From assembly GCA_000004695.1 (NCBI GenBank), contig CM000154.2, positions 1,280,001 through 1,344,000 on the forward strand: a DNA stretch of 64,000 bases, read 5' to 3'. This document shows positions 10,029 to 43,199 of this stretch, one piece after another. Below the pieces are notes generated by a model, which was given only the letters and a program-made list of their open reading frames with translations, made no database searches and was not told the DNA's origin. The stretch comes from Dictyostelium discoideum (taxonomy: Eukaryota). The position numbers and the translations under genes were made by a program. The stretch's first letter is position 1, and each line of letters starts with the position of its first letter.

Positions 10029-12032
10029 TTATTTTTTTTCAAGTTCAATAGATTTACTATCGTTGTCACTATTATTACTATTTTTACTATTATTACTATT
10101 TTTACTATTATTACTATTTTTACTATTATTATTTTTTCCAAAACTGATATCAGTTCTACTATTGTTTCTAGAAATTCCAGATTCACTTTGGGAAAGTCTG
10201 CTTCTTACTTCATCAAATACAACCTCTGACCAAATATCTCTTGCAACTCTTGAGGTTCCATATATTGAAAAGAATAAAACACCAAAAACTCTAATAAAAA
10301 AATAAAAAATGAAAAAAGATGCATAGTTCGGTCCAGTTGTAAAACAAGTTTCTTCTGACCCACCACTTAATAAACAAAGTACATAATCTGCCACAGCAGC
10401 TTTATATGAATCAATTTTCCTTTCAACATCAAAAAAGAAAATAAATAAATACAAAAATGAGCCAGCAACAGAAAAAACTAAAGAAAAAGGTTTGATTTGT
10501 CTTAATATAAATTCACTCTCTCTAATGTTAACTTTTTTTGAAATCTTAAAAAAAAGTTTTTTTTTTTTAAAAATATTAGTTAAAAAATATAATGAAAAAT
10601 AATTTAATGTTAAATATTTACATTATAAATCTCATGAATAACGCCACCAATACAGAAAATACCAATTGAAAGACCAATACCACAAGGCAACCAAAAAAGT
10701 GTAATAACAAACCTGGAATTTTAATAATATAAAAAAAATAATAATAATAATTTAAATATTAATAACTATCAATATTAAAATTAAATATTTTAAAATTAAT
10801 TTAATAAATACAAACCATCTTTCTCTAACCCAACATTCAATATAACCTGTACCAGCAACCATCTTTTTTGCTGATAAAAGTATAACAGTTGTTATTATAG
10901 TAAAAATTGTATTTCCAATCATAAAATGTCTAAAATAAAATAGTTTTATTCTTTTTACACTACAAAATAATACTATACTCATTGTCATTGCCCAGCAACA
11001 ACAATAGGTTATACCAAAATGAAACATTGCTCCGGTAATTCCACATGCAGCATCATTTTGAACAGCACTTCTACCTGGCTCTGGACATAGAAACTCCTCA
11101 ATACCATAACCAAATTTAATAATATCAGTTAAATAAACCAATGCAATAGAAGTAGACATCAAGGTGATACATATATTATATTTTGATTTTCTTTTTCTAT
11201 TTAAAATTCCAAATGTTAAAATATTATAACAAGCGCAAATAAAACTAATTGATGATAAGGTTTTAGCCATATCATAAACTCTTTTCCATTGGGTTTTTGT
11301 ATAATTTGGCATTGGACAAGTTAGAACGCAGTTTGTTGGTGGGAGATAGGTATAACCTTTATTGGGTGAATATTTTGGGTCACTTGAATTTTTTAAAAGA
11401 AGTGGGTATGGACAAGCTTGAATTAATTCCATTTGGTTGGAAATATTATTATACCCGTCTGTTGGATCAATACATGGTACCTTATATAATCCTTTATTTT
11501 CAGTATACCCATATAGTGTTAAATTATATTCAGTTCCAATCTCTGGAAATAAAAAGGAAATTGAACAATCAATTTTCAAAGAAAGTCTTGGACAATTTGA
11601 GACCATTCTTTCACATACAGATTTACATAATCTTTGAGGCAATGAAACATTTTGTAGAGGTGTAATTTTGGGTATCGTTTCAACACAAGGAGAAAAATTT
11701 AAATCGCACAAACCGAATTGGGTAAATAATAAATCATCGCATTGGTCTTGTAAAAATGTTAAAGCTTCAAAAGATTTTAAAATTTCTATTTTTGAAAGTT
11801 CCTGGGAAGAAATATTTTTATTATCAACAAGTGTAACAGTTGAATAAATTTTTTTACCTCCATTAAATAATCTGTTATTACAAAGTGGTTGGCCAATTGA
11901 ATCCCCGACATAGTTCAAACATTTTGAACCTGGAAATACAATTCCAACTCCATATCCTTTGCTATATTCATTATTTTCCCCATTAATTATTATTATTTTT
12001 AAAATTAAATAAATTAAAAAAATTCTAATCAT
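10029..12032 (-). CDS. Frizzled/Smoothened-like (Fsl-type) 7TM receptor with an N-terminal Frizzled cysteine-rich domain, paralog A. Three exons: 10816..12032, 10622..10712, 10029..10544.
   Basis: Signal peptide MIRIFLIYLILKIIIING. Frizzled-CRD cysteine pattern: C..LLF.QFGLC..NFSPC...LPQRLCKSVCERMVSNCPRL. Seven hydrophobic helices. Post-TM7 YGTSRVARDIW resembles the Frizzled KTxxSW region. Exon 1 ends ...RERW(tg) with a gtttgt donor; the 91-nt exon 2 encodes FVITLFWLPCGIGLSIGIFCIGGVIHEIYN (TM6), which is collinear with paralogs B and C; then gtaaat..ttaag|ATT into exon 3 (ISKKVNIRESEFILRQIKP...). The three-exon model gives about 607 aa. Confidence 0.6.
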
Positions 12033-12297: not shown

Positions 12298-14154
12298 CTA
12301 ATTAATTTTAATTGATTCTAATTCAACTGCTTTCTTTTCATTTAGATTTTTATCATTGTTATCATTTAAAATCATATTGTTATTATTTGTACTATTACTA
12401 TTAATTTTAGAATCACTATTTTTAGGACTGGATTTTGGTGTTGATTTTGGAGAAATTGAGGAACTAATACTTTTCCAGATTTTATTTTGAACCCAAATTT
12501 TTCTTGCAATATTAGATGTACCATAGAATAAAAAAAATATAATTCCAAACCATCTAATAACCAAATAAAATAAAAAATAAGGAACATAGCTTGGTCCGGT
12601 TGTGAAGCATTCTTCTTGGCTTCCATTTAATAAACATAAAACATAATCTTCAACAGCTGATCTATATCCTCCAAATTTTCTTTCAATATCAAAAAAGAAT
12701 ATAAAAAGATATAAAAATGATCCTGAAATAAATATAACAATTAAAAGAGGTTTTAATTCTCTTTGTAGTAAATCATTTCTATTACTAATAGATTTTTTGG
12801 ATGTCTTTTTTTTAAAAAGTATAAAAAGATTAATATTTGTTTAATAATTATATAATTTAAAAAATAAAAATAAAAAAAAACTTACTTTATAAACTTCATG
12901 GATTACAGCAATAATACAAAAAGAACCAATTAATAAGGCAATACCACAAGGAATCCAGAATAAAGATATAGCATACCATCTATCTCTAATCCAACACTCA
13001 ATAGATCCTAAACCAGCTTCGAATTTGGAAGTTGCAGCAGCGATAACAACAGTAGTAATTGTAAAGGTAGTATTACCAATTAAGAAATAATTGAACTTAA
13101 ACCATTTCTGACGTTTAACGCTACAATAAAGAACAAGACCCATTGTCATTGACCATAACACACAATAAGTAATGCCAAGGTGAAAAAATGCACCCGTTAG
13201 ACCACAAACTGGATCAAGTTGTTGTTTGGCACTTCTTCCAGGTTCTGGGCATAAAAGTTCTTCATAGCCAATACCATAGGTAATGATATCACACAGATTA
13301 ACCAATGCAATTGAACCAGAGAAAAAACATGTACATTTATGGGGATCTGATACTTTTTTATTTATTATTCCAAATGTTAAAACATTATATAAAGATAAAA
13401 TAAAACTAATTGTTGATAAAATTTTTGACATTGTTAAAAGTTGATCCCATTTTTGGTTTGAATAATTTGGAACAGGACATGGGAGTACACAATTTGATGG
13501 TGAAAGATATGAATATCCTTTATTAGCGGCATATTCTGGATCACTTGAATTCTTCAACAGTAACGGAGATGGACAAATTTCAATAAAACTAGAATTACTT
13601 GAAACTTGATTAAAAAAAATAGTAGGATCTGAACATGGAACTGCAAAGGTACCATTATCAATAGTATAACCATATGGTGATAGATCATAAAATGTACCAA
13701 TCTCTGGAAATAAAAATGAATTTGAACAATCCATTTGCTCTTCAAGTCTTGGACAATTTGAAACCATTCTATCACATACTGATTTGCAAAATCTTTGTGG
13801 CAAAGATATACTTTTCAATGGGGTTAAAGTTACTTCAATACATGGTGCCAAATAAATATCACAGATTCCAAATTGAGCAAATAATAAATCTTTACATTGA
13901 TCTTGTAAAAATGTTATTGCTTCAAATGATTTCTTTATGTTTGTTTGTGAATCTATTTGTGAATTTGTGGTTGTATAAATTCTATCACCATTATTTTGTA
14001 ATTTACTATTACATAATTGCTGGTCAATTGGATCTCCTATATAATTTAAACACTCTGCATCTGGTATAACTAATCCAATTCCAAATCCTTTTGGTATTTC
14101 AAATCCACTAATATAACTAATAATAAAAATAATAAAAATTATTAAAATTTTCAT
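12298..14154 (-). CDS. Frizzled/Smoothened-like (Fsl-type) 7TM receptor, paralog B. Two exons: 12886..14154 and 12298..12804.
   Basis: Same architecture as paralog A, with blocks of 50-60% identity (FEAITFLQDQCKDLLFAQFGICDIYLAPC...LPQRFCKSVCDRMVSNCPRL). Donor ...HEVYK|GTAAGT (plus-strand acttac at 12882-12887). Acceptor aaaaaaaag|ACA TCC at 12805/12804, phase 0. Exon 2 encodes TSKKSISNRNDLLQRELKPLLIVIFISGSF...DIERKFGGY...YGTSNIARKIW. About 591 aa. Confidence 0.6.
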
Positions 14155-14448
14155 TTTTTATTATTTTTTTATTTTTTATTTATTTATTTTTTTATTTATT
14201 TATTTATTGTTTATTGTTTATTTAATTTATTTTTATTTGTTTTTTTTTTATTGTTTGATTTTATTTTTATTTAATTTATTTTTATTTGTTACAGAGGTTT
14301 AAAAATAAACTTTCAAAAAAAAAAAAAAAAAATTTATAGCGTTCTAAAAAAAAAAGAAGAATTTAAAATAAAAAAAAAAAAATCATATCGCCCACAATGA
14401 ATTCAAAAATCTAAAATGGTTTCGCATCTTTGATTGACACATTATTAG

Positions 14449-28842: not shown

Positions 28843-30648
28843 ATGAAATCAATAATATTTATAACTTTTTTTATTTTTTTTTTAAAAAAATTAAATGGAT
28901 TACCAAATGGATATGGAGTAGGATTAGTTGACCCAAATGGGCAATGTATGAATTATATTGGTGATTCAATTGACCAACCATTATGTAAAAACAAATTATC
29001 AAATAATGGTGAATTTATTTATTCTACAATTGGAAATTCATTAAATTCACAAACTTTATCACAACAAACAATAGCAAAATCATTTGAAGCATTAACATTC
29101 ATTCAAAACCAATGTCAAGATTTATTATTTGCAGAATACGGAATTTGTAATATTTATTTATCACCATGTATTATAACAACTGTAGCACCATTGAAAAATA
29201 TATCGCTGCCACAAAGATTATGTAATTCAGCATGTCAAAGAATGGTTACCAACTGTCCAAGGCTTGGAGAAAAAATTGATTGTTCAATTTCATTTTTATT
29301 TCCAGAAGTTGGGACACTGTATAACCTATCTGATTACGGCTATAAAGCCAATGGTGGTTTATATGAAGTACCATGTTTTAATCCAACTGCTGATTATGAC
29401 AATTCCTCTAGTTTAAATGAATTTATTGAAATATGTCCCTCTCCATTATTATTAAAGAATTCAAGTGATCCGAAATATTCAAAAAGAGGCTATACTTATC
29501 TTCCACCCACAAATTGCGTACTTCCATGTCCAGTTCCAAATTATACAAAAGAAAAATGGAATCAAATTGAAAACTTGTCAAAAGTATTATCAACAATTAG
29601 TTTTGTATGTTCAATTTATAATATATTATCATTTGGAATTTTAAAAAAAAAAAAAACTAAATATACAATTTGTATATCAGCACTTTCAGCATCAGTTGCA
29701 TTGATCAATCTTGGAGATATCATAAAGATTGGGGTTGGTTATGAAAAAGTACTATGTCCAGAACCAGGTAGATTTGCAACACAAGTAGATGATCCTCTAT
29801 GTGGATTAACCGCTGCATTATTCCATGTTGGAATTTGTAGCACTGTATTATGGACTACAACAATGGCAATTTATTTATATTCAGCAATTAAAAATATTAA
29901 ATTATTTAAATTCCGTTATTTTATAATTTTTAATACTGGATTTTCATTAACAAGCTTAATAATTGCTGCATCAGCCTCAAAATTCGAAGCTGGTACTGGT
30001 TCAATAGAATGTTGGATTAGAGATAGATGGTATTCAATATGTTTATTCTGGCTTCCTTGTGGTATTTGTTTATTAATTGGTACAATTTGTATTGCTTCTG
30101 TCATTGTTGAAATTTATAAAGTATTTTTTCAAAATTTTTAATATATATTATTTTTAAAAATTATTTAATTTCATATTAATTATTTTAAATTTATTATTTA
30201 GGTTTCCAAGAATATTAAATTAAGTGAAAGTGAAACAATAATGAGACAAATTAAACCAATTATAAGTGTAATTTTAGTATCTGGATCATTTACATACCTT
30301 TTTATAATATTTTTTGATATTGAAAGAAACTTTGGAGGATATAGATCAGCAGTGACTGATTATGTTTTATGTCTATTAAACAGTACTGATAATGGTATAG
30401 AATGTCATACAAGTGGTCCTAGCTATAATCCTTATTTTATGTTTTACTTCTTTATGAGGTTTTTTGGAATTCTATTCTTTTTAATTTATGGCACTTCAAA
30501 AAATGCAAGAGATTCCTGGTATGAATTATTTATAAAAATTAAAGTCTCTCTTAGTGAAACCTCTTCAACAATTAGTAATAATAGTGGTGGTGGTTCTAGT
30601 CAACAAAAACAACAACAACAAAATGAAATAAAACTGGAAAAAATTTAA
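28843..30648 (+). CDS. Frizzled/Smoothened-like (Fsl-type) 7TM receptor, paralog C. Two exons: 28843..30120 and 30202..30648.
   Basis: Signal peptide. CRD: FEALTFIQNQCQDLLFAEYGICNIYLSPC...LPQRLCNSACQRMVTNCPRL. Seven TM helices. Donor ...EIYK|GTATTT at 30121; acceptor tttag|GTT at 30202, phase 0. Exon 2 VSKNIKLSESETIMRQIKP...YGTSKNARDSW. About 574 aa. Same intron position as paralog B. Confidence 0.6.
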
Positions 30649-35783: not shown

Positions 35784-37087
35784 TTTTTATTATATATATA
35801 TTTATTTTATAATTTACAACTATACAAAGGAATTTTATTGGTTTTTTATTGAATATATTTGATGTGTTGGGTTTTATTGATGTTTTCTGGTCTTGAATAT
35901 TGATTAAATCTTTTAAAAAACAGATCTATAACCAAAAAAAAAAAAAAAAAATTGTTGTTATTTATATATTCGTGAAAATTTAACAATCATCATTTTTTTT
36001 TTTTTTAAAATTTTTTATTTTTCATTTTTCATTTTTTTTTTTTTTTTTTTATTTTTTTTTTTTTTTTTTTTTTTGGTCAATTGGAAATCAAATTAAAAAA
36101 AAAAAAAATAAAACAATATTGTTTATTATCTAAAAAAGGTGATTAAAAAAAAAAAAAAAAAAGAAAATCATTGGATTATTTATTAAATTTTAATCAAAAA
36201 TTTTATTTTTAGGATTTAGATATATACCATTCATTTTTTGTAATTGTTTTTTTATTTTGGAGAATGGGAATAAAATTTATATAAAAAAAAAAGATAAAAA
36301 AAAAAGATAAAAAAAAATTTGATTATTTGATTGAATTGGTTTATAAATTTTTTTTATAAAACTAAAAAAAAAAATAATATTCATAAATTTCTTAATTTCA
36401 TTTATTTATTTTATTTTTTTAAAAAATAATAAGTGAGTTTTTTTTTTGATCAAAAAAAATAAATGAAAAATATTTAAATATTTGGATTATTTTATTATTT
36501 CAAGTTTGACATTTTAAAAAAAAAAAAAAAAACACCAATTCAATCAAAATCAAATTTTTTTTTTGGTTTCTTTTTAAAATCTATTTTTTGAATAAAATAA
36601 ATTCCCCCTTGTTCCTCAAAACAAAAAAATTAATTACAAAAATATGGATGATAAATAATTAAATTCAAAAAAAAATAAAATTTTTGATTAAATATTACTT
36701 TTTTTTTTTTTTTTCAATCCCCAAATCTTAATCTGTTTTTATCAATAACCCTTTTTTCACAAAATATAAAAATATCTTAACCCCCATGCCTGGAATTTTT
36801 TTTTTTTTACAATTATCACCCCCAAACAGTTTATTATATTTAATTTTATTATTATTTTTATTATTATTATTATTTCCATTAACCCCACCAAACCTTTTAT
36901 TATTATTATTATTATTTTAAACCGTTTTTTTTTTTTGAACTGTTAAAAAAATTCAATTATATTTATTTTTTTTTTTTTTTTTTATTAATATTTTTTTTTT
37001 ATTTTTTTTTTTTTTTTTTATTTTGGAAGTATAAATAAAATTATTTTTAATAATAATTTCCTTAGTTTTTAAATAATAATATAAAAA

Positions 37088-39928
37088 ATGAATAAATTTT
37101 ATTCATTACCATTAATTATTATTTTAATAATTTCGTGTGGTGCTTTTTTTATCCACGGAGAAGAGGCATATTTTGAATATAGGATTCATAATGAAAAATT
37201 TATTTTCAAACTTAGTGATGATATTAAAATTCAACATGCAAGAAGAGTATTATCTGGTGGTATGTATTTACAAATAAAAAAATAAATAAATAACTTAAAA
37301 AATAAACAAATAATTAATTAATTATATAATCGAATTAATAAATTAATAAATAAATGAAAAAATAAATAAACAATTAAATAAATAAAAAAATAAAAGAATG
37401 AATTGATTGACAACATTATACTAATTTTTTTTTTTTATAAATTCTTATAGATGAAATAAGTTTGTAAGTTGATAATAGTTATTTTATTATTATTTATTTA
37501 AATATCTTCTTAATATTAATATTTACTATAACCCAATAATTATAAAAAAATAGAACAAACGTTGTAGGTAAAATTATTAACAAACCAATAGAATATAATA
37601 TTAATTGGGATTTTCATCTTGACCCAGACTCAGTTACTTTTTTTGAATCTGAAACAGAGGTAAATTTATATTTAATAATATTTTTATTTTATTTATTTAT
37701 TTTTTAAAAAATATTTAACAAAGTCAATTAACATGTAAATTAAAAATATTTAAAAAAAAAAAAAAAAAAAATAGTTTTGTAACCAAAAATTCCAGTATGT
37801 AAATGGATATATTGATAAACTTTGTGAAAGTGATAATTGTTATTTTTGCCCATGGGATGGTTCACTTGTTAGGGAATTATATTTTGGAGATATTAAACAA
37901 GATCTATTACTTCGTAATAATGAAAATCAACAAGTAAAACAAGTATATGAAGGTGATATTAAACAAGATTTAATTCGTCGTAAAAATAAAATTCATCCAG
38001 AAAAACAAATGCATGAAGAGGATATTAAACAACAAGTTTTTTTCCGTATCAAAAATATTCATGAAAAACCAGTTTATGAAGGTGATATCAAACAAGATTT
38101 ATTACGTCGTAAAAATAAAAATAATCCAGAGAAACAAGTATATGAAGGTGATATTAAACAAGATTTATTACGTCGTAAATATTATGATAAATCTCAATCA
38201 ACCCAAGTATATCAAGGTGATGTGATTCAAGATATATTACGTTCAATAAATCGTCAAGAAAAAGAAATTTATGAAGGTGATATCAAACAAGATTTATTAC
38301 GTCGTAATAATCAAAATAATCAAGAAAAACAAGTTTATGAAAGTGATATCAAACAAGATATTTTACGTCGTAAATATTATGAAAAATCCCAATCAACCCA
38401 AGTATATCAAGGTGATATGACTCAAGATATATTACGTTCATTAAATCGTCAAGAAAAAGGAGTTTATGAAGGTGATATCAAACAAGATTTATTACGTCGT
38501 AAGTATTATGATAAATCTCAATCAAACCAAGTATATCAAGGTGATGTGATTCAAGATATTTTACGTTCTATAAATCGTGATAAAAAACCAGTTTATGAAG
38601 GTGATATCAAACAAGATTTGTTGCTTCGTAATAATCAAAATCCACAAGAGAAATCAATATATGAAGGTGATATCAAACAAGATATATTACGTCGTAAAAA
38701 TCTTGATAAATCTCAATCAATACAATTTTATCCAGGTGATATTATTCAAGATATTTTACGTGTTTTAAATCGTGAGGAAAAAGAAGTTTATGATGGTGAT
38801 ATTAAACAAGACTTATTATCTCGTAAAAATCTTGCCAAATATCAATCAACAGAAGTATATCCAGGTGATGTCATTCAAGATGTTTTACGTGTATTAAATC
38901 ATGATGAAAAAGAAGTTTATGAAGTTGATATCAAACAAGACTTGTTACGTCGTAATAATAAAAATCCACAAGAGAAACCAGTATATGAAGGTGATATTAA
39001 ACAAGATATTTTACGTCGTAATAATCTTGATAAATCTCAACCAAAACAAGTATATCCAGGTGATACTATTCAAGATATTTTACGTATTATTAATCGTGAT
39101 GAGAAAGTTTACGAAGGTGATATTAAACAAGACTTATCAGGTCGTAAAAATCATCAAGAGAAAACTGTTTATGAAGGTGATATCAAACAAGACTTATTAC
39201 GTCGTAAAAATCTTGATAAACCTGATTCAAAACAAGTATATCCAGGTGATGTTATTCAAGATATTTTACGTGTTATTAATCGTGATGAAAAAGAAGTTTA
39301 TGAAGGTGATATTAAACAAGACTTATTACATCGTAATAACAAAAATCGTCAAGAGAAACCAGTATATGAAGGTGACATTAAACAAGATTTATTACGTCGT
39401 AATAACAAAAATCATCAAGAAGAACAAGTATATCAAGGTGATATTATTCAAGATATTTTACGTGTTTTAAATCATGAAGAGAAAGAAGTTTACGAAGGTG
39501 ATATTAAACAAAATTTGTTGCGTCGAAAAAATCATGATCATCCAGAAAAAGAAATTTATGAAGGTGATATTAAACAAGATTTATTACGTCGTAATAACAA
39601 AAACCATCAAGAGAAACTTGTTTATGAAGGTGACATTAAACAAGATTTATTACGTCGTAATAACAAAAATCATAAAGAAGAACAAGTATATCAAGGTGAT
39701 ATTATTCAAGATATTTTACGTGTTTTAAATCATGGAGAAAAAGAAGTAAATGAGGATGAAATTGAAAAAGATTTGATGCAACGTAAAAATCACCATCAAG
39801 AAGAAGAGGCTTCTGAAGACTTGGAAGAAGAAATTGGAAAACTTTGGAATAAACAAAGTCAAGCATTTGTTGAACAACATCCAAACCAACACAACAATCA
39901 AAAAACAATTCACTTGTCAAGACAATAA
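37088..39928 (+). CDS. Secreted tandem-repeat protein of unknown function: signal peptide plus about 28 copies of a 22-25 aa charged repeat (consensus ..[22 protein letters not shown]..). Four exons: 37088..37259, 37451..37463 (13-nt micro-exon), 37554..37659, 37775..39928.
   Basis: Exon 1 [26 protein letters not shown]... (signal peptide) ends in phase 1 with GTATGT. cttatag|ATGAAATAAGTTT|gtaagt restores the frame into aaatag|A ACA AAC GTT..., giving [35 protein letters not shown]|gtaaat. The final exon starts either at atag|TTT (37775) or ccag|TAT (37796); both are in frame. It encodes ...[33 protein letters not shown]... followed by the repeat array (ORF 38009..39928). The overlapping small plus ORFs (38013.., 38577.., 38901.., 39474..) are repeat-frame artefacts. 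Confidence 0.6.
37880..39760 (+). repeat. Coding tandem repeat array of about 66-75 bp units (consensus gtttatgaaggtgatattaaacaagatttattacgtcgtaa...)
   Basis: Direct reading: more than 25 near-identical units in alternating A/B forms ([15 protein letters not shown]... / [20 protein letters not shown]). Confidence 0.85.
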
Positions 39929-40045: not shown

Positions 40046-41143
40046 TTATTTAAATTCTTTAACTAATTGTTTGAATTCAGAGATTAAGTCATTAACAGTT
40101 AAAGAACCTCTAACGACATTATCACGAGTACGAACATTGACGGTGTTACCATTAATTTCTTCTTGACCAACGACCAAGATGTAATTGTATTGAGCAAGTT
40201 GAGCTTCACGAACTTTTTTAGAGATAGTTTTATCGGAATCATCGATATCACAATAGAAACCAGCATCAGAGATTTCTTTACAAACCTTTTGACCGTATTC
40301 ATTGTGAGTTTTATTGACAGTGACGACGATAGCTTGACGTGGTGAGACCCATAATGGCCATTTACCACCGGTATGTTCGATTAAAATTGCCATCATTCTT
40401 TCGACGGAACCCAAGATAGCACGATGAATGATAACTGGTCTCTTTTTGAGTTCGGCAGCATCATCAGATTGATACTCTAAATCGAAACGAATTGGTAATT
40501 GGAAATCTAATTGAATGGTGGCACATTGATGACTTCTCTTGAGACAATCGGTGATGTGAATATCAATCTTTGGACCATAGAAAGCACCATCTTTTGGATT
40601 TAATTTCCATGGTTTACCAAATTTATTGAGGGCTTTCTCGAGGGAGGCTTCAGCAATATCCCATTGAGCGATTTCACCAAGGAAATTGTCTGGACGAGTT
40701 GAAAGTTCTAAACCAAATTCGAAACCAAAAATACCATAAACATATTGCATGAAACCTAAACAACTATTGATTTCATCTTCAATCATTTCGGTGGTACAAA
40801 AGATGTGAGCATCATCTTGTTGGAATTTACGTACACGAGTTAAACCAGTCAATGCACCTGCTAATTCATTACGATGTAAAACACCAAAATCTGCAAAACG
40901 TAATGGTAATTCACGATATGATCTTTGACGTGATCCAAACATTAAACAATGACCTGGACAATTCATTGGTTTCAATGAGAAATTGTCTTTATCAACTGGT
41001 AATACAAACATATTTTCGGAATACTTTTGCCAATGTCCTGATTGTTCCCAAAGTTTTTGTGAGAAAATTGATGGTGAAATAACTTCAGTAAATCCTCTTC
41101 TATGATATTCTTCCTTTATTTTTTTTTTTTTTAAGAAAAAAAA

Positions 41144-41183
<40 letters not shown>

Positions 41184-42570
41184 ATATTATTTTAGATGAT
41201 AATAATTATTATTTTTAAATTACTTACTCTAATAAATTCAACTAATTTATTATAAATTCTAGTGCCATGTGGTAAAAAGAAAGCACTACCTGGTGAATAT
41301 GGATGGAAAAAGAAGAGTTCTTGAGCTTTACCAACATTTCTATGATCACGGAGAGCAGCTTCTCTCATGAAATTTTCATATTCTTCCATTTGTTTTTTAT
41401 CTGGGAAAGAGATACCATAGACTCTTTGTAAATCATCATTTTCAGCTTTACCTAACCAATAAGCGCTTGAATTCTTGGTAACAGCAAATGATTTAATATA
41501 ACTAGTATTTGGTACATGTGGACCTCTACATAAATCAACTAAAGTACCACAACGATATAATGATACAGTATCCTCTTGTGGAATCTTTGAAATGATTTCA
41601 GTCTTGTATTTGTTAAATTTAAACATAGTTAATGCAATATCTCTTGGTACTGCTAATCTTTCAAATGGTTGTTTCTCTTGAACAATCTTTTGTGCTACTT
41701 CATTAATTAATTTATAATCTTCTGCTGATACAATCCTATAATAAATAAATAAATAAATAATTAATAAAATGATTTTGAATGATTTGATCAAATTGACAAT
41801 ATTGTTGTTTCATTTGGTATTATTGAAATTAATTTTGAATATTTACTTATCACCCATAGCCATATCATAATAAAAACCTTCAGAAGTGGCTGGACCAATA
41901 CATAATTGACCACCATAAATTCTTTCCATAGCTTGACCTAAAATATGAGCAGATGAATGCCAAAAAGTTTTTTTACCTTCTTCAGAATCAAATTTACATA
42001 ATTGTAAATTACAATCAGCTTCGAGTGGTCTAGAGATATCCCAAATTTGTTCACCATTAACTTTTGATGAAACAATTGAATCAGCAAGACCTCTTGAAAT
42101 ACCCTTTGCAATATCATATGGGGTGGTTTTATTTTTAATACCTGCTACAACTTTACCATCTGGTAAAGTAACATTAATTGGTTCTTCTTTCATATCTATT
42201 TAAATTTTAAAAAAAAAAAAAAATATATATAAAAAAAAAAATAAAATAAAATAAAAAGATATTAATAAAATATTATAACCTAAAAATAGTTTTTTTTTTT
42301 TTTATTTTTTTTTTTTTTTTTTTTATTTTTTTTTATTTTTATTTATTTATTATTATTATTACCTTTAAGTGATTCTAAGTGTTTTGCTTTTAAACTTTCC
42401 CAAATTTCAATTCTTTCTTTGACGTAATCTGGAGTTTGGAGAGTTTCCATGACACCAACTTTCTTTACAGCTGGTTTCTTTTCTTTCTTTTCAGCAGCTG
42501 GTTTCTTTTCAGCAACTGGTTTAACTTCAGTTGGAGTTTCAACTGGTTTATTTTCTTGTGAATCTGACAT
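40046..42570 (-). CDS. Threonyl-tRNA synthetase (class II, cytosolic type). Four exons: 42363..42570, 41847..42195, 41228..41735, 40046..41113.
   Basis: Exon 1 [12 protein letters not shown]...LESLK(g)|gtaata. Exon 2 (D)[18 protein letters not shown]... (TGS domain)...[29 protein letters not shown], ending in phase 2 with gtaaat. Exon 3 (K)[13 protein letters not shown]...EFIR|gtaagt. Exon 4 [40 protein letters not shown]...NCPGHCLMF...[38 protein letters not shown]...[18 protein letters not shown]...[18 protein letters not shown].... These are canonical ThrRS motifs 1-3 and anticodon-binding domain. 710 aa. Confidence 0.88.
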
Positions 42571-43199
42571 TTTATTAATTTTATATATAAATAAATTGAT
42601 TAATACAAATTAAAAAAAATAATAAAAATAAAAAACTATGAAAAAAAATTTTAAAAATTGGGCTTGATATCGAAAAAAAAAAAATAAAAAAATAAAAAAA
42701 AATAAAAAAAAAAATTAATTTATATAAAAAAAAAAAAAAAAAATAACGACCGCCACAAAAAAAAAAGAAGTTCATTTTAATAAATTTCTCAAAAAATTTG
42801 GTATAAAATTTATTTTGGCAATAACCTTATTGATTAGTTTTGTTTAGACACAAATCAAAAATAGGTAAAATAAAAAAATAAAATATAATATAAAAGAAAA
42901 TTAATAGAATAACCCCCACCCCCAACGATAATAAAAAAACAAGAAAAAAAAAAAAATCATGTAATTAAAATAATGAAAATTTAAATAAAGATATTTTAAA
43001 ATAAATGCTATTACTATATTATTTATTTATTTATTTTTTACAATTTTTTTATACTTGATTCTTAATAATTTCTCTTTGAAAATATACATATTTTATATAA
43101 ACCAAAGATATTTTTATTTTATTTTTATTTTCATCTTTTTTTTATTTTTTTTATTTTTTTTATTTTTATTATTATTACTATTTTAGTTTTTTTTTAATA

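Follow-up and report, generated by a model that had tools for sequence, protein, structure and literature searches.

The locus at positions 37088 to 39928 of the window (by which we mean the whole stretch of 64,000 nucleotides of Dictyostelium discoideum DNA that was analysed) raises the question of whether an exon for a hydrophobic leader, a 13-nt micro-exon, another short exon and a long repeat-bearing frame make up one gene, and of what kind of protein such a gene would encode. The original prediction that these four exons join in frame, at the coordinates given in Table 1, holds: together they form an open frame of 814 codons (2445 nt, 814 aa, TAA stop), and all three introns have GT..AG ends. 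The introns contain 6-12% GC, against 24-28% in the long exons (1, 3 and 4), and reading through intron 1 leads to a stop after 65 aa. The predicted product (97.7 kDa, mildly acidic) opens with a hydrophobic leader; a BP74_N domain containing four cysteines comes next, then a tandem array of 30 charged units, and a short polar tail ends it. On balance we consider it probable that the locus, cigA/BP74, is a four-exon gene for a secreted, elongated repeat scaffold with a BP74_N head.

Table 1. Features of the cigA locus, in coordinates of the window.
Feature	Position	Strand	Description
Three C-rich boxes	36776-36790, 36814-36828, 36880-36895	+	Candidate promoter elements; upstream DNA 12-15% GC
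Exon 1	37088-37259	+	172 nt, ends in phase 1; donor GTG|GTATGT; codons 1-24 (37088-37159) encode the hydrophobic leader
Intron 1	37260-37450	+	191 nt, 9.4% GC, GTATGT...TTATAG
Micro-exon ATGAAATAAGTTT	37451-37463	+	13 nt, frame kept; codes residues (D)EIS(L)
Intron 2	37464-37553	+	90 nt, 12% GC, GTAAGT...AAATAG
Exon 3	37554-37659	+	106 nt; middle of BP74_N, including an 11-residue motif
Intron 3	37660-37774	+	115 nt, 6% GC, GTAAAT...AAATAG
Exon 4	37775-39928	+	2154 nt; C-terminal third of BP74_N, repeat array, 39-aa polar tail, TAA
BP74_N part of exon 4	37775-37879	+	Carries Cys99/114/119/122
Repeat array	37877-39808	+	Residues 132-775; 30 units of 19-23 aa in tandem
Likely poly(A) signal AATAAA	39939-39944	+	First AATAAA 3′ of the stop

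The locus is almost certainly the cigA/BP74 gene of D. discoideum AX4 (DDB_G0288245, EAL63304.1, UniProt P14606), an assignment that we base on organism, domain name and the proximity of gene identifiers. Published supplements name DDB_G0288245 as cigA BP74 and P14606 as 'Cyclic AMP-inducible protein BP74' (PMC6198379, PMC12821622). The organism and the strain AX4 are the same, the name of this protein is the source of the Pfam domain name BP74_N, and its architecture, in which BP74_N heads a longer protein, agrees with that of the window gene. The identifier is also close to that of DDB_G0288255 (XP_636811), an AX4 gene which the window ORF at 14682-15902 matches exactly and which fslF adjoins. 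The description of the protein as novel thus has to be withdrawn, as it is almost certainly an annotated product, already transcript-profiled and detected by mass spectrometry, whose N-terminus is Pfam BP74_N. Judging from its early UniProt accession, BP74 has been catalogued since around 1990. With the gene already present in dictyBase, UniProt and transcriptome and proteome tables, the locus carries little weight as a discovery; our literature search on BP74/cigA found no paper treating the gene in its text, and its role has apparently been studied by nobody.

Overlooked in the original prediction was the known Pfam domain in the first ~108 residues of the mature protein. BP74_N (PF23621) matched residues 25-132 over profile positions 1-111 of 114 (E=3.8e-33), with scores of 114.2-117.3 bits (E=4e-33 to 4e-34) at a gathering score of 27 bits. 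The domain begins at E25, within exon 1. Its Pfam score was 117.3 bits with the micro-exon, compared with 112.0 and 96.9 bits in splice models that lack it, and both junctions around the micro-exon aligned without gaps with intron-less actinobacterial BP74_N genes, which supports the 13-nt micro-exon as claimed. The question of which of two in-frame acceptors opens exon 4 is answered in the same way: the acceptor at 37775 scored 117.3 bits and that at 37796 only 95.3 bits, and the former is favoured because it retains a conserved Cys. Homology therefore supports both the predicted micro-exon and the acceptor at 37775. The first bases of the micro-exon, ATGAAA, are also the start of exon 2 of the D. 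dimigraforme protein P0001, and the position and phase of intron 1 are common to two D. dimigraforme paralogues. The tryptic peptide VLSGDEISLTNVVGK would be diagnostic for the micro-exon, which makes a handy test case for gene predictors in AT-rich genomes.

An alignment of BP74_N from eight sequences has 19 invariant columns and no gaps at the exon junctions. All four Cys have equivalents in the dictyostelid members; of the bacterial members, most keep those of Cys99 and Cys122, and two keep those of Cys114 and Cys119. The domain occurs in stand-alone proteins of D. dimigraforme (P0001 and its neighbour) and of the actinobacteria Bailinhaonella, Nonomuraea, Marinactinospora and Streptoalloteichus. 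These share the ~110-aa domain and its 19 invariant positions, including YN..(W/Y)..H..P, and the Cys pattern of the window domain is common to the dictyostelid and some of the bacterial members; unlike the window protein, they are 113-170 aa long and have no repeat array. Several bacterial members are also without a leader, and in two of them two of the Cys are missing. The window BP74_N is the divergent member, with 41-48% identity to all stand-alone proteins, against 58-69% between the dictyostelid and the bacterial stand-alone proteins. The family shows an unusually close kinship between amoebae and actinobacteria. Sequence and profile searches of the PDB with BP74_N gave no match (the single-sequence search returned only a chance RNA 2′-phosphotransferase), and neither did an NCBIfam search with the BP74_N construct. 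The AF2 model of D. dimigraforme P0001 had a pLDDT of 49.5, and the best Foldseek match in the PDB had a meaningless E of 0.59. The gene neighbourhoods of bacterial BP74_N are not conserved and therefore yield no functional clue.

Of the repeat array as first described, the existence stands but the details had to be revised. It comprises 29 clear units and a degenerate one, not ~28, their measured length is 19-23 aa, not 22-25 aa, and in place of two alternating units there are three subtypes, of 22 aa (A), 23 aa (B) and 20 aa (C), which follow one another as AAAABCABCBCABCBCABCABCAACAAACA. Each unit consists of a conserved core V-Y-x-G-D-(I/V)-(K/I)-Q-D-(L/I)-L-R and, after it, a polar linker that is variable and 7-11 aa long. 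Conservation of the core among the 29 clear units is high (Y2 in 28, G4 in 26, D5 and Q8 in all 29, D9 in 27, L11 in 26 and R12 in 23), while linker length varies. About 39% of the array is K+R+D+E and 18% Q+N; it contains no Cys, and of its 14 RR and 18 dibasic sites no RR falls in a C-type unit. Tandem Repeats Finder scored the array at 634-1435 (threshold 50), including 28.5 copies at period 66. At the DNA level the units are 79% identical over the 13-codon core and 83-86% identical within a subtype, and one block pair alone (units 24-25 versus units 28-29) reaches 97%, so that the array had been overstated as highly regular. Between units, pS was 0.17-0.40 and pN/pS 0.32-0.80. Given a unit identity of 79-86% and these pN/pS values, we conclude that the array grew by block duplication and is constrained. 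Judged from its sequence, the array is not freshly expanded, and the proposal of recent expansion or concerted evolution is true in a weak sense only.

By inspection, the leader resembles the signal peptide that had been claimed: its n-region contains K, its hydrophobic core is 16 residues long, and the residues that precede E25 are small. It is the only hydrophobic segment of the protein (KD19 = 2.43), which has no hydrophobic C-terminus; the leaders of two D. dimigraforme paralogues stop just before EEAYF. We infer that the leader would be removed before E25 and that BP74 would enter the secretory pathway. The lack of any N-glycosylation sequon and the detection of the protein in whole-cell proteomes count against this. 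Each unit may form a tight VYxGD turn and then a short N-capped amphipathic helix (D-x-x-Q cap, I/L/L face), with consecutive units linked by the variable polar linker. Built in this way, the array would serve as a long polyampholyte rod or spacer of multivalent character and, during the multicellular stages, might present its BP74_N head in the matrix or the space outside the cells. The helical hydrophobic moment of a 12-residue unit segment is 2.41, and in the AF2 model of exon 4 the helices, where modelled, lie at unit positions ~4-13. The pLDDT over the array is 33, which makes the proposal of a fold a weak one, and the array could be disordered.

The claim that the repeat fits no recognised family was borne out, and by Pfam, MORN and IQ tests it is in no known family. 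NCBIfam gave for the repeat region only a sub-threshold, meaningless match (27.8 bits against a cutoff of 279), a metagenome scan with the repeat DNA pattern found nothing, and one with the protein pattern found a single chance match, KNHDHPEK, in a contig of 47% GC. We rejected YopX (PF09643) and NMB0315 domain I (PF22310), whose 36-39 bits are summed from many weak matches of ~31 residues (positions 58-88 of 128 and 4-35 of 83, respectively) with at most one stretch significant alone; the common part is no more than a vYeGDi-type motif. In the databases the array matched only MORN-repeat proteins (E=1e-8 and weaker) and one IQ array of the ASPM type (E=1.7e-20), and the units could on this account be diverged MORN or IQ motifs with which the protein binds membrane or calmodulin. 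BLASTP gave an in-register alignment of the units with those of MORN proteins (30-33% identity), and extracellular calmodulin in Dictyostelium is reported in PMC7079120. As in the array, MORN units (PF02493) have a ~23-aa period and start with VYEG(D/E), IQ arrays (PF00612; ASPM-like) repeat every ~23 aa in Arg-rich units with a 'VY-G' tetrapeptide, and the C-type units contain IQxxxR. However, Pfam MORN and IQ gave no match at E<=1. The MORN-unit HMM aligned VYEG(D/E) alone (positions 1-5 of 23), and its bias-corrected 9 bits were fewer than those of scrambled periodic controls, which reached 15 (19 without bias correction); all of the conserved MORN glycines are missing from the units, and so is the second β-strand half. 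The IQ pattern [FILV]Qxxx[RK]Gxxx[RK]xx[FILVWY], strict or G-less, was found 0 times in the array and 48 times in the IQ array P0002, and the IQ alignment matches VYxG to VYRG, not IQ to IQ. IQ arrays are cytosolic, whereas the window protein has a secretory-type leader. We therefore rejected MORN or IQ membership, the resemblance being 'VY-G' and a common period only, and regard such a binding array as extremely improbable.

Other readings of the array leave family membership aside. It might be an intrinsically disordered charged linker with no repeating fold, serving as an entropic spacer or a hydrated polyampholyte, and we allow this a minor but real chance. It would suit the pLDDT of 33, the high content of charged residues and of Q+N, and the fact that no homologue of the array was detected; single-sequence AF2 is, however, uninformative in both directions, and the 12-residue core is nearly invariant, including the hydrophobic V1, Y2, I6, L10 and L11, with drift in the linkers only, a pN/pS below 1 and a strong helical moment in C-type units. 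Fungal Kex2-processed repeat proteins and the alpha-factor precursor suggest a different analogy, that of a polyprotein precursor in which dibasic RR/RRK cuts would free many developmental signal peptides of ~22-45 aa. BP74 shares with such precursors a signal-like leader, many short tandem units and recurring, regularly placed dibasics, and its gene is cAMP-inducible and timed in development. We nevertheless think this improbable, as the ten C-type units, a third of the total, are without a dibasic site, RR lies not in a spacer but within the most conserved stretch of the unit, which is probably helical, and the name BP74, if the name alone is a guide, suggests that a large polypeptide was first seen. 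There is, lastly, scarcely any chance that the repeat ORF is a gene apart from the leader and BP74_N exons, or that the locus is a pseudogene or an untranslated repeat. Although the protein model has no exact match in the protein libraries searched and in-frame splice alternatives without the micro-exon exist, BP74_N spans all four exons, and its last 35 residues, which include at least three of its four Cys, are encoded where the repeat exon begins and in the frame of the repeats. An open frame of 717 codons in DNA of 27% GC is not chance, and both the mRNA and the protein of cigA/BP74 have been detected, so that the claim of a single gene is upheld.

For the secreted scaffold that we favour, published data indicate when and where it would be made. 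According to supplementary tables, growing cells contain no cigA mRNA; the transcript appears within 4 h of starvation and is most abundant at 12-16 h of development. It is about 2-fold more abundant in prestalk than in prespore cells (346 versus 158), and reaches 96 TPM in stalk and 57 in cup, against 3.5 in spores. In whole-cell proteomes, BP74 protein was detected by mass spectrometry at the mound stage and at culmination. Dictyostelium spore-coat proteins are enriched in prespore cells or spores and have Cys-rich repeats; cigA, with more transcript in prestalk and stalk and an array free of Cys, fits neither description, and the suggestion of a spore-coat-type protein is accordingly dropped.

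A wider reading, which we put forward as speculative and rather unlikely, is that cigA is a lineage-specific fusion. A BP74_N domain that passed between actinobacteria and dictyostelids by horizontal transfer would have been joined to a repeat born and amplified in Dictyostelium, and the repeat would represent a new structural class (a tight turn plus an N-capped amphipathic helix, ~22 aa) forming a multivalent extracellular rod for multicellular development.

Outside the coding region, the C-rich boxes upstream of exon 1 are candidate promoter elements of cigA. A similar C-rich box lies upstream of the neighbouring gene thrS (42910-42927), and such boxes may therefore be generic. A search for ThrRS homologues, made as a synteny route to other Dictyostelium, had no Dictyostelium protein among its matches. 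The thrS gene is on the opposite strand, with its stop 118 bp from that of cigA.

The gene at 37088-39928 is almost certainly cigA, which encodes BP74, and is therefore not the novel protein of the original prediction. This identification was made by name, position and architecture, and not by direct sequence comparison: it draws on the organism and strain, on the closeness of the gene identifiers (the ORF at 14682-15902 matches DDB_G0288255 of D. discoideum AX4 exactly and adjoins fslF), on the name of the Pfam domain, and on an architecture in which BP74_N forms the N-terminal end of a far longer protein. The entry 'DDB_G0288245 cigA BP74' appears in a supplementary table (PMC6198379), and a proteome supplement equates EAL63304.1 with DDB_G0288245 and with UniProt P14606, the cigA product 'Cyclic AMP-inducible protein BP74' (PMC12821622). 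The structural observation itself was confirmed with minor corrections and its splice model is supported; the remaining interest, only moderate, lies in the function of BP74, the fold of its repeat and the origin of BP74_N.

Within this strongly AT-rich window (14-34% GC), the four exons were correctly placed, and splicing them together gives 2445 nt of open frame, or 814 codons, ending in TAA. The introns have 6-12% GC against 24-28% in exons 1, 3 and 4, a contrast that is also seen in the neighbouring thrS. Residues 25-132 match the Pfam domain PF23621, 'BP74 N-terminal domain', over positions 1-111 of 114 (E=3.8e-33), and the match stretches over all four exons, with its last 35 residues and three of its four Cys encoded at the start of exon 4 in the repeat frame. 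Thus the leader and repeat exons belong to one gene, as had been proposed.

Positions of the features (window positions unless a locus is named)
Feature	Position	Strand	Remarks
cigA exon 1	37088-37259	+	
cigA intron 1		+	191 nt; starts GTATGT, ends AG
cigA micro-exon	37451-37463	+	13 nt
cigA intron 2		+	90 nt; starts GTAAGT, ends AG
cigA exon 3	37554-37659	+	
cigA intron 3		+	115 nt; starts GTAAAT, ends AG
cigA exon 4	37775-39928	+	large repeat exon
Repeat array	37877-39808	+	residues 132-775; split on conserved core
thrS	40046-42570	-	threonyl-tRNA synthetase; four exons, 710 aa; tail-to-tail with cigA
Paralogous ORF	10752-12032	-	signal-like leader
Paralogous ORF	12841-14154	-	signal-like leader
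Paralogous ORF	28843-30141	+	signal-like leader
D. dimigraforme BP74_N genes	L001 10001-10769 and 13641-14409		
Actinobacterial BP74_N	L005 3995-4345		
Actinobacterial BP74_N	L006 and L007 3824-4336		
Actinobacterial BP74_N	L008 3773-4345		
Actinobacterial BP74_N	L009 3884-4342		
Actinobacterial BP74_N	L010 1437-2246		

Splice models that skip the micro-exon and still stay in frame exist for cigA, and we compared the rivals by their score against the BP74_N profile. The model with the micro-exon and acceptor 37775 reached 117.3 bits, against 112.0 bits (donor 37263 to acceptor 37554) and 96.9 bits (donor 37259 to acceptor 37568) when the micro-exon was omitted, and 95.3 bits when it was kept with acceptor 37796, which drops a conserved 'E-x-C' retained with 37775. 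The first intron of the two D. dimigraforme BP74_N genes has a codon and phase identical to those of cigA, and in both genes exon 2 opens with ATGAAA, as does the micro-exon. The strongest evidence is provided by actinobacterial BP74_N genes that lack introns and were recovered by a genome scan; they align with the cigA protein with zero gaps from ARRVLSG onward past the micro-exon, and likewise across the exon 3/4 junction. By homology, then, the predicted micro-exon is well supported, as is acceptor 37775 over 37796.

Tandem Repeats Finder recovered the array with scores of 634-1435, counting 28.5 copies for a period of 66, along with longer, higher-order periods (195, 258, 324 and 381 nt). 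We counted 30 units of 19-23 aa (29 clear and a degenerate last one), slightly more than the 28 or so first estimated, and instead of two alternating types they form three subtypes, A (22 aa), B (23 aa) and C (20 aa), in the order AAAABCABCBCABCBCABCABCAACAAACA. Each has a near-invariant core of 12 residues (Y2 28/29, G4 26/29, D5 29/29, Q8 29/29, D9 27/29, L11 26/29, R12 23/29), followed by 7-11 residues variable in sequence and length. Nucleotide identity between units is 79% in the core; for whole units of one subtype it is 83-86%, and the closest pairs, 24/28 and 25/29, reach 97%. Pooled between-unit pS is 0.17-0.40 and pN/pS is 0.32-0.80. The array, therefore, was built by multi-unit block duplication, and its units have since drifted apart while mildly constrained by purifying selection. 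Being neither fresh nor strongly homogenised, it bears out the recent expansion or concerted evolution first suggested only weakly. A second frame within it (38013-39728, + strand; for example 38901-39470) is open for up to 189 codons; it results from the periodicity of the repeats and does not represent a gene.

Two known families had to be weighed for the repeat. A full HMMER search of the array against 1.84 billion representative proteins returned 24 matches at E<=1e-3, headed by an ASPM-like IQ array (E=1.7e-20), with the others that were checked being mostly MORN-repeat proteins, and in BLASTP the units align in register with MORN units. However, we rejected both memberships: the MORN-unit HMM covers only VYEG(D/E), positions 1-5 of 23, scrambled periodic controls reach equally high scores, and the array lacks the MORN glycines; a pattern search gives 0 IQ motifs in it, and what the IQ alignment matches is VYxG to VYRG. 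Pfam gave only summed weak matches to a piece of about 31 residues of YopX and of NMB0315 domain I, which come from a common 'vYeGDi' motif, and metagenome scans gave nothing. The repeat is therefore unclassified, in line with the original reading. The protein libraries contain AX4 proteins encoded in this window, DDB_G0288255 for one, but neither BP74 nor any close orthologue, and returned no Dictyostelium ThrRS either, so that finding no homologue there says little on close relatives.

Apart from its N-terminal leader, BP74 (predicted 97.7 kDa, pI 5.8) has no hydrophobic segment; it lacks a C-terminal anchor and any N-glycosylation sequon, and all four Cys lie in BP74_N. The leader is probably cut before E25, the point at which the Pfam domain begins and the paralogue leaders end. 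The invariance of D5 and Q8 would fit a D-x-x-Q helix N-cap, the segment past the GD turn would be amphipathic if helical (moment 2.41 in a C-type unit), and an otherwise unreliable AF2 model places putative helices at unit positions ~4-13. Together these features favour, over a purely disordered polyampholyte or a dibasic-processed peptide precursor, a tentative scheme that we hold at somewhat below even chance: BP74 would be secreted, its ~30 'turn plus short helix' modules making a long multivalent rod or spacer that carries the BP74_N head, and its site of action would be extracellular, in mound, slug and culminant, leaning somewhat towards prestalk and stalk.

Expression data of Parikh et al. 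(2010), reproduced in PMC6198379, give cigA mRNA values of 0.73, 198, 577, 1088, 1187, 587 and 426 at 0, 4, 8, 12, 16, 20 and 24 h, with 57 TPM in cup and 0.33 TPM in vegetative cells. By mass spectrometry, both replicates contained BP74 at the mound and culmination stages; it was absent from vegetative and aggregation samples and left a trace in one fruiting-body replicate (PMC12821622). Transcription and translation of the repeat region follow from these data, and the outcomes named at first as refuting the original prediction are not borne out. The spore-coat-type role once envisaged is unlikely, given 3.5 TPM in spore vs 96 TPM in stalk, and mRNA values of 158 in prespore vs 346 in prestalk (PMC6198379).

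We found no literature discussing BP74_N, and no solved structure was detectable by sequence. Among members found by a pattern-limited scan, the stand-alone D. dimigraforme domains share 58-69% identity with the intron-less actinobacterial proteins, whereas the cigA domain shares only 41-48% with any stand-alone member; the D. dimigraforme domains are thus nearer to actinobacteria than to D. discoideum BP74 (42-48%). This suggests that BP74_N passed between bacteria and dictyostelids and that the array-fused copy may then have evolved faster. The D. dimigraforme genes each have their own 13-nt micro-exon (L001 10595-10607, CTTTTCTCCCAGG, and ~14150-14162, CTTTCCTCCCAGG) coding part of AFLPG at a different position from that of cigA, which has no intron at that site and is two residues shorter. 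Both genes stand among cytochrome P450 genes (L001 2581-4767, 11201-12781) and the bacterial homologue at L005 is flanked by Rieske oxygenase, SDR and hydrolase genes, a faint small-molecule-metabolism theme that is inconsistent across loci; bacterial neighbourhoods are not conserved.

Cyclic AMP-regulated Dictyostelium promoters carry G/C-rich boxes. C-rich boxes (ACCCCCA / ACCCCACC type) at 36776-36895, upstream of cigA in promoter DNA of 12-15% GC, resemble these, yet may be generic; a like box lies upstream of thrS (42910-42927). Just 117 bp of 5% GC separate the cigA and thrS stop codons. The three paralogous ORFs have the motif 'C(L/M)NY(I/V)GD(S/P)I(D/G)Q' in common and, since one belongs to fslF (Frizzled and Smoothened-like protein F), form a local cluster of fsl genes.
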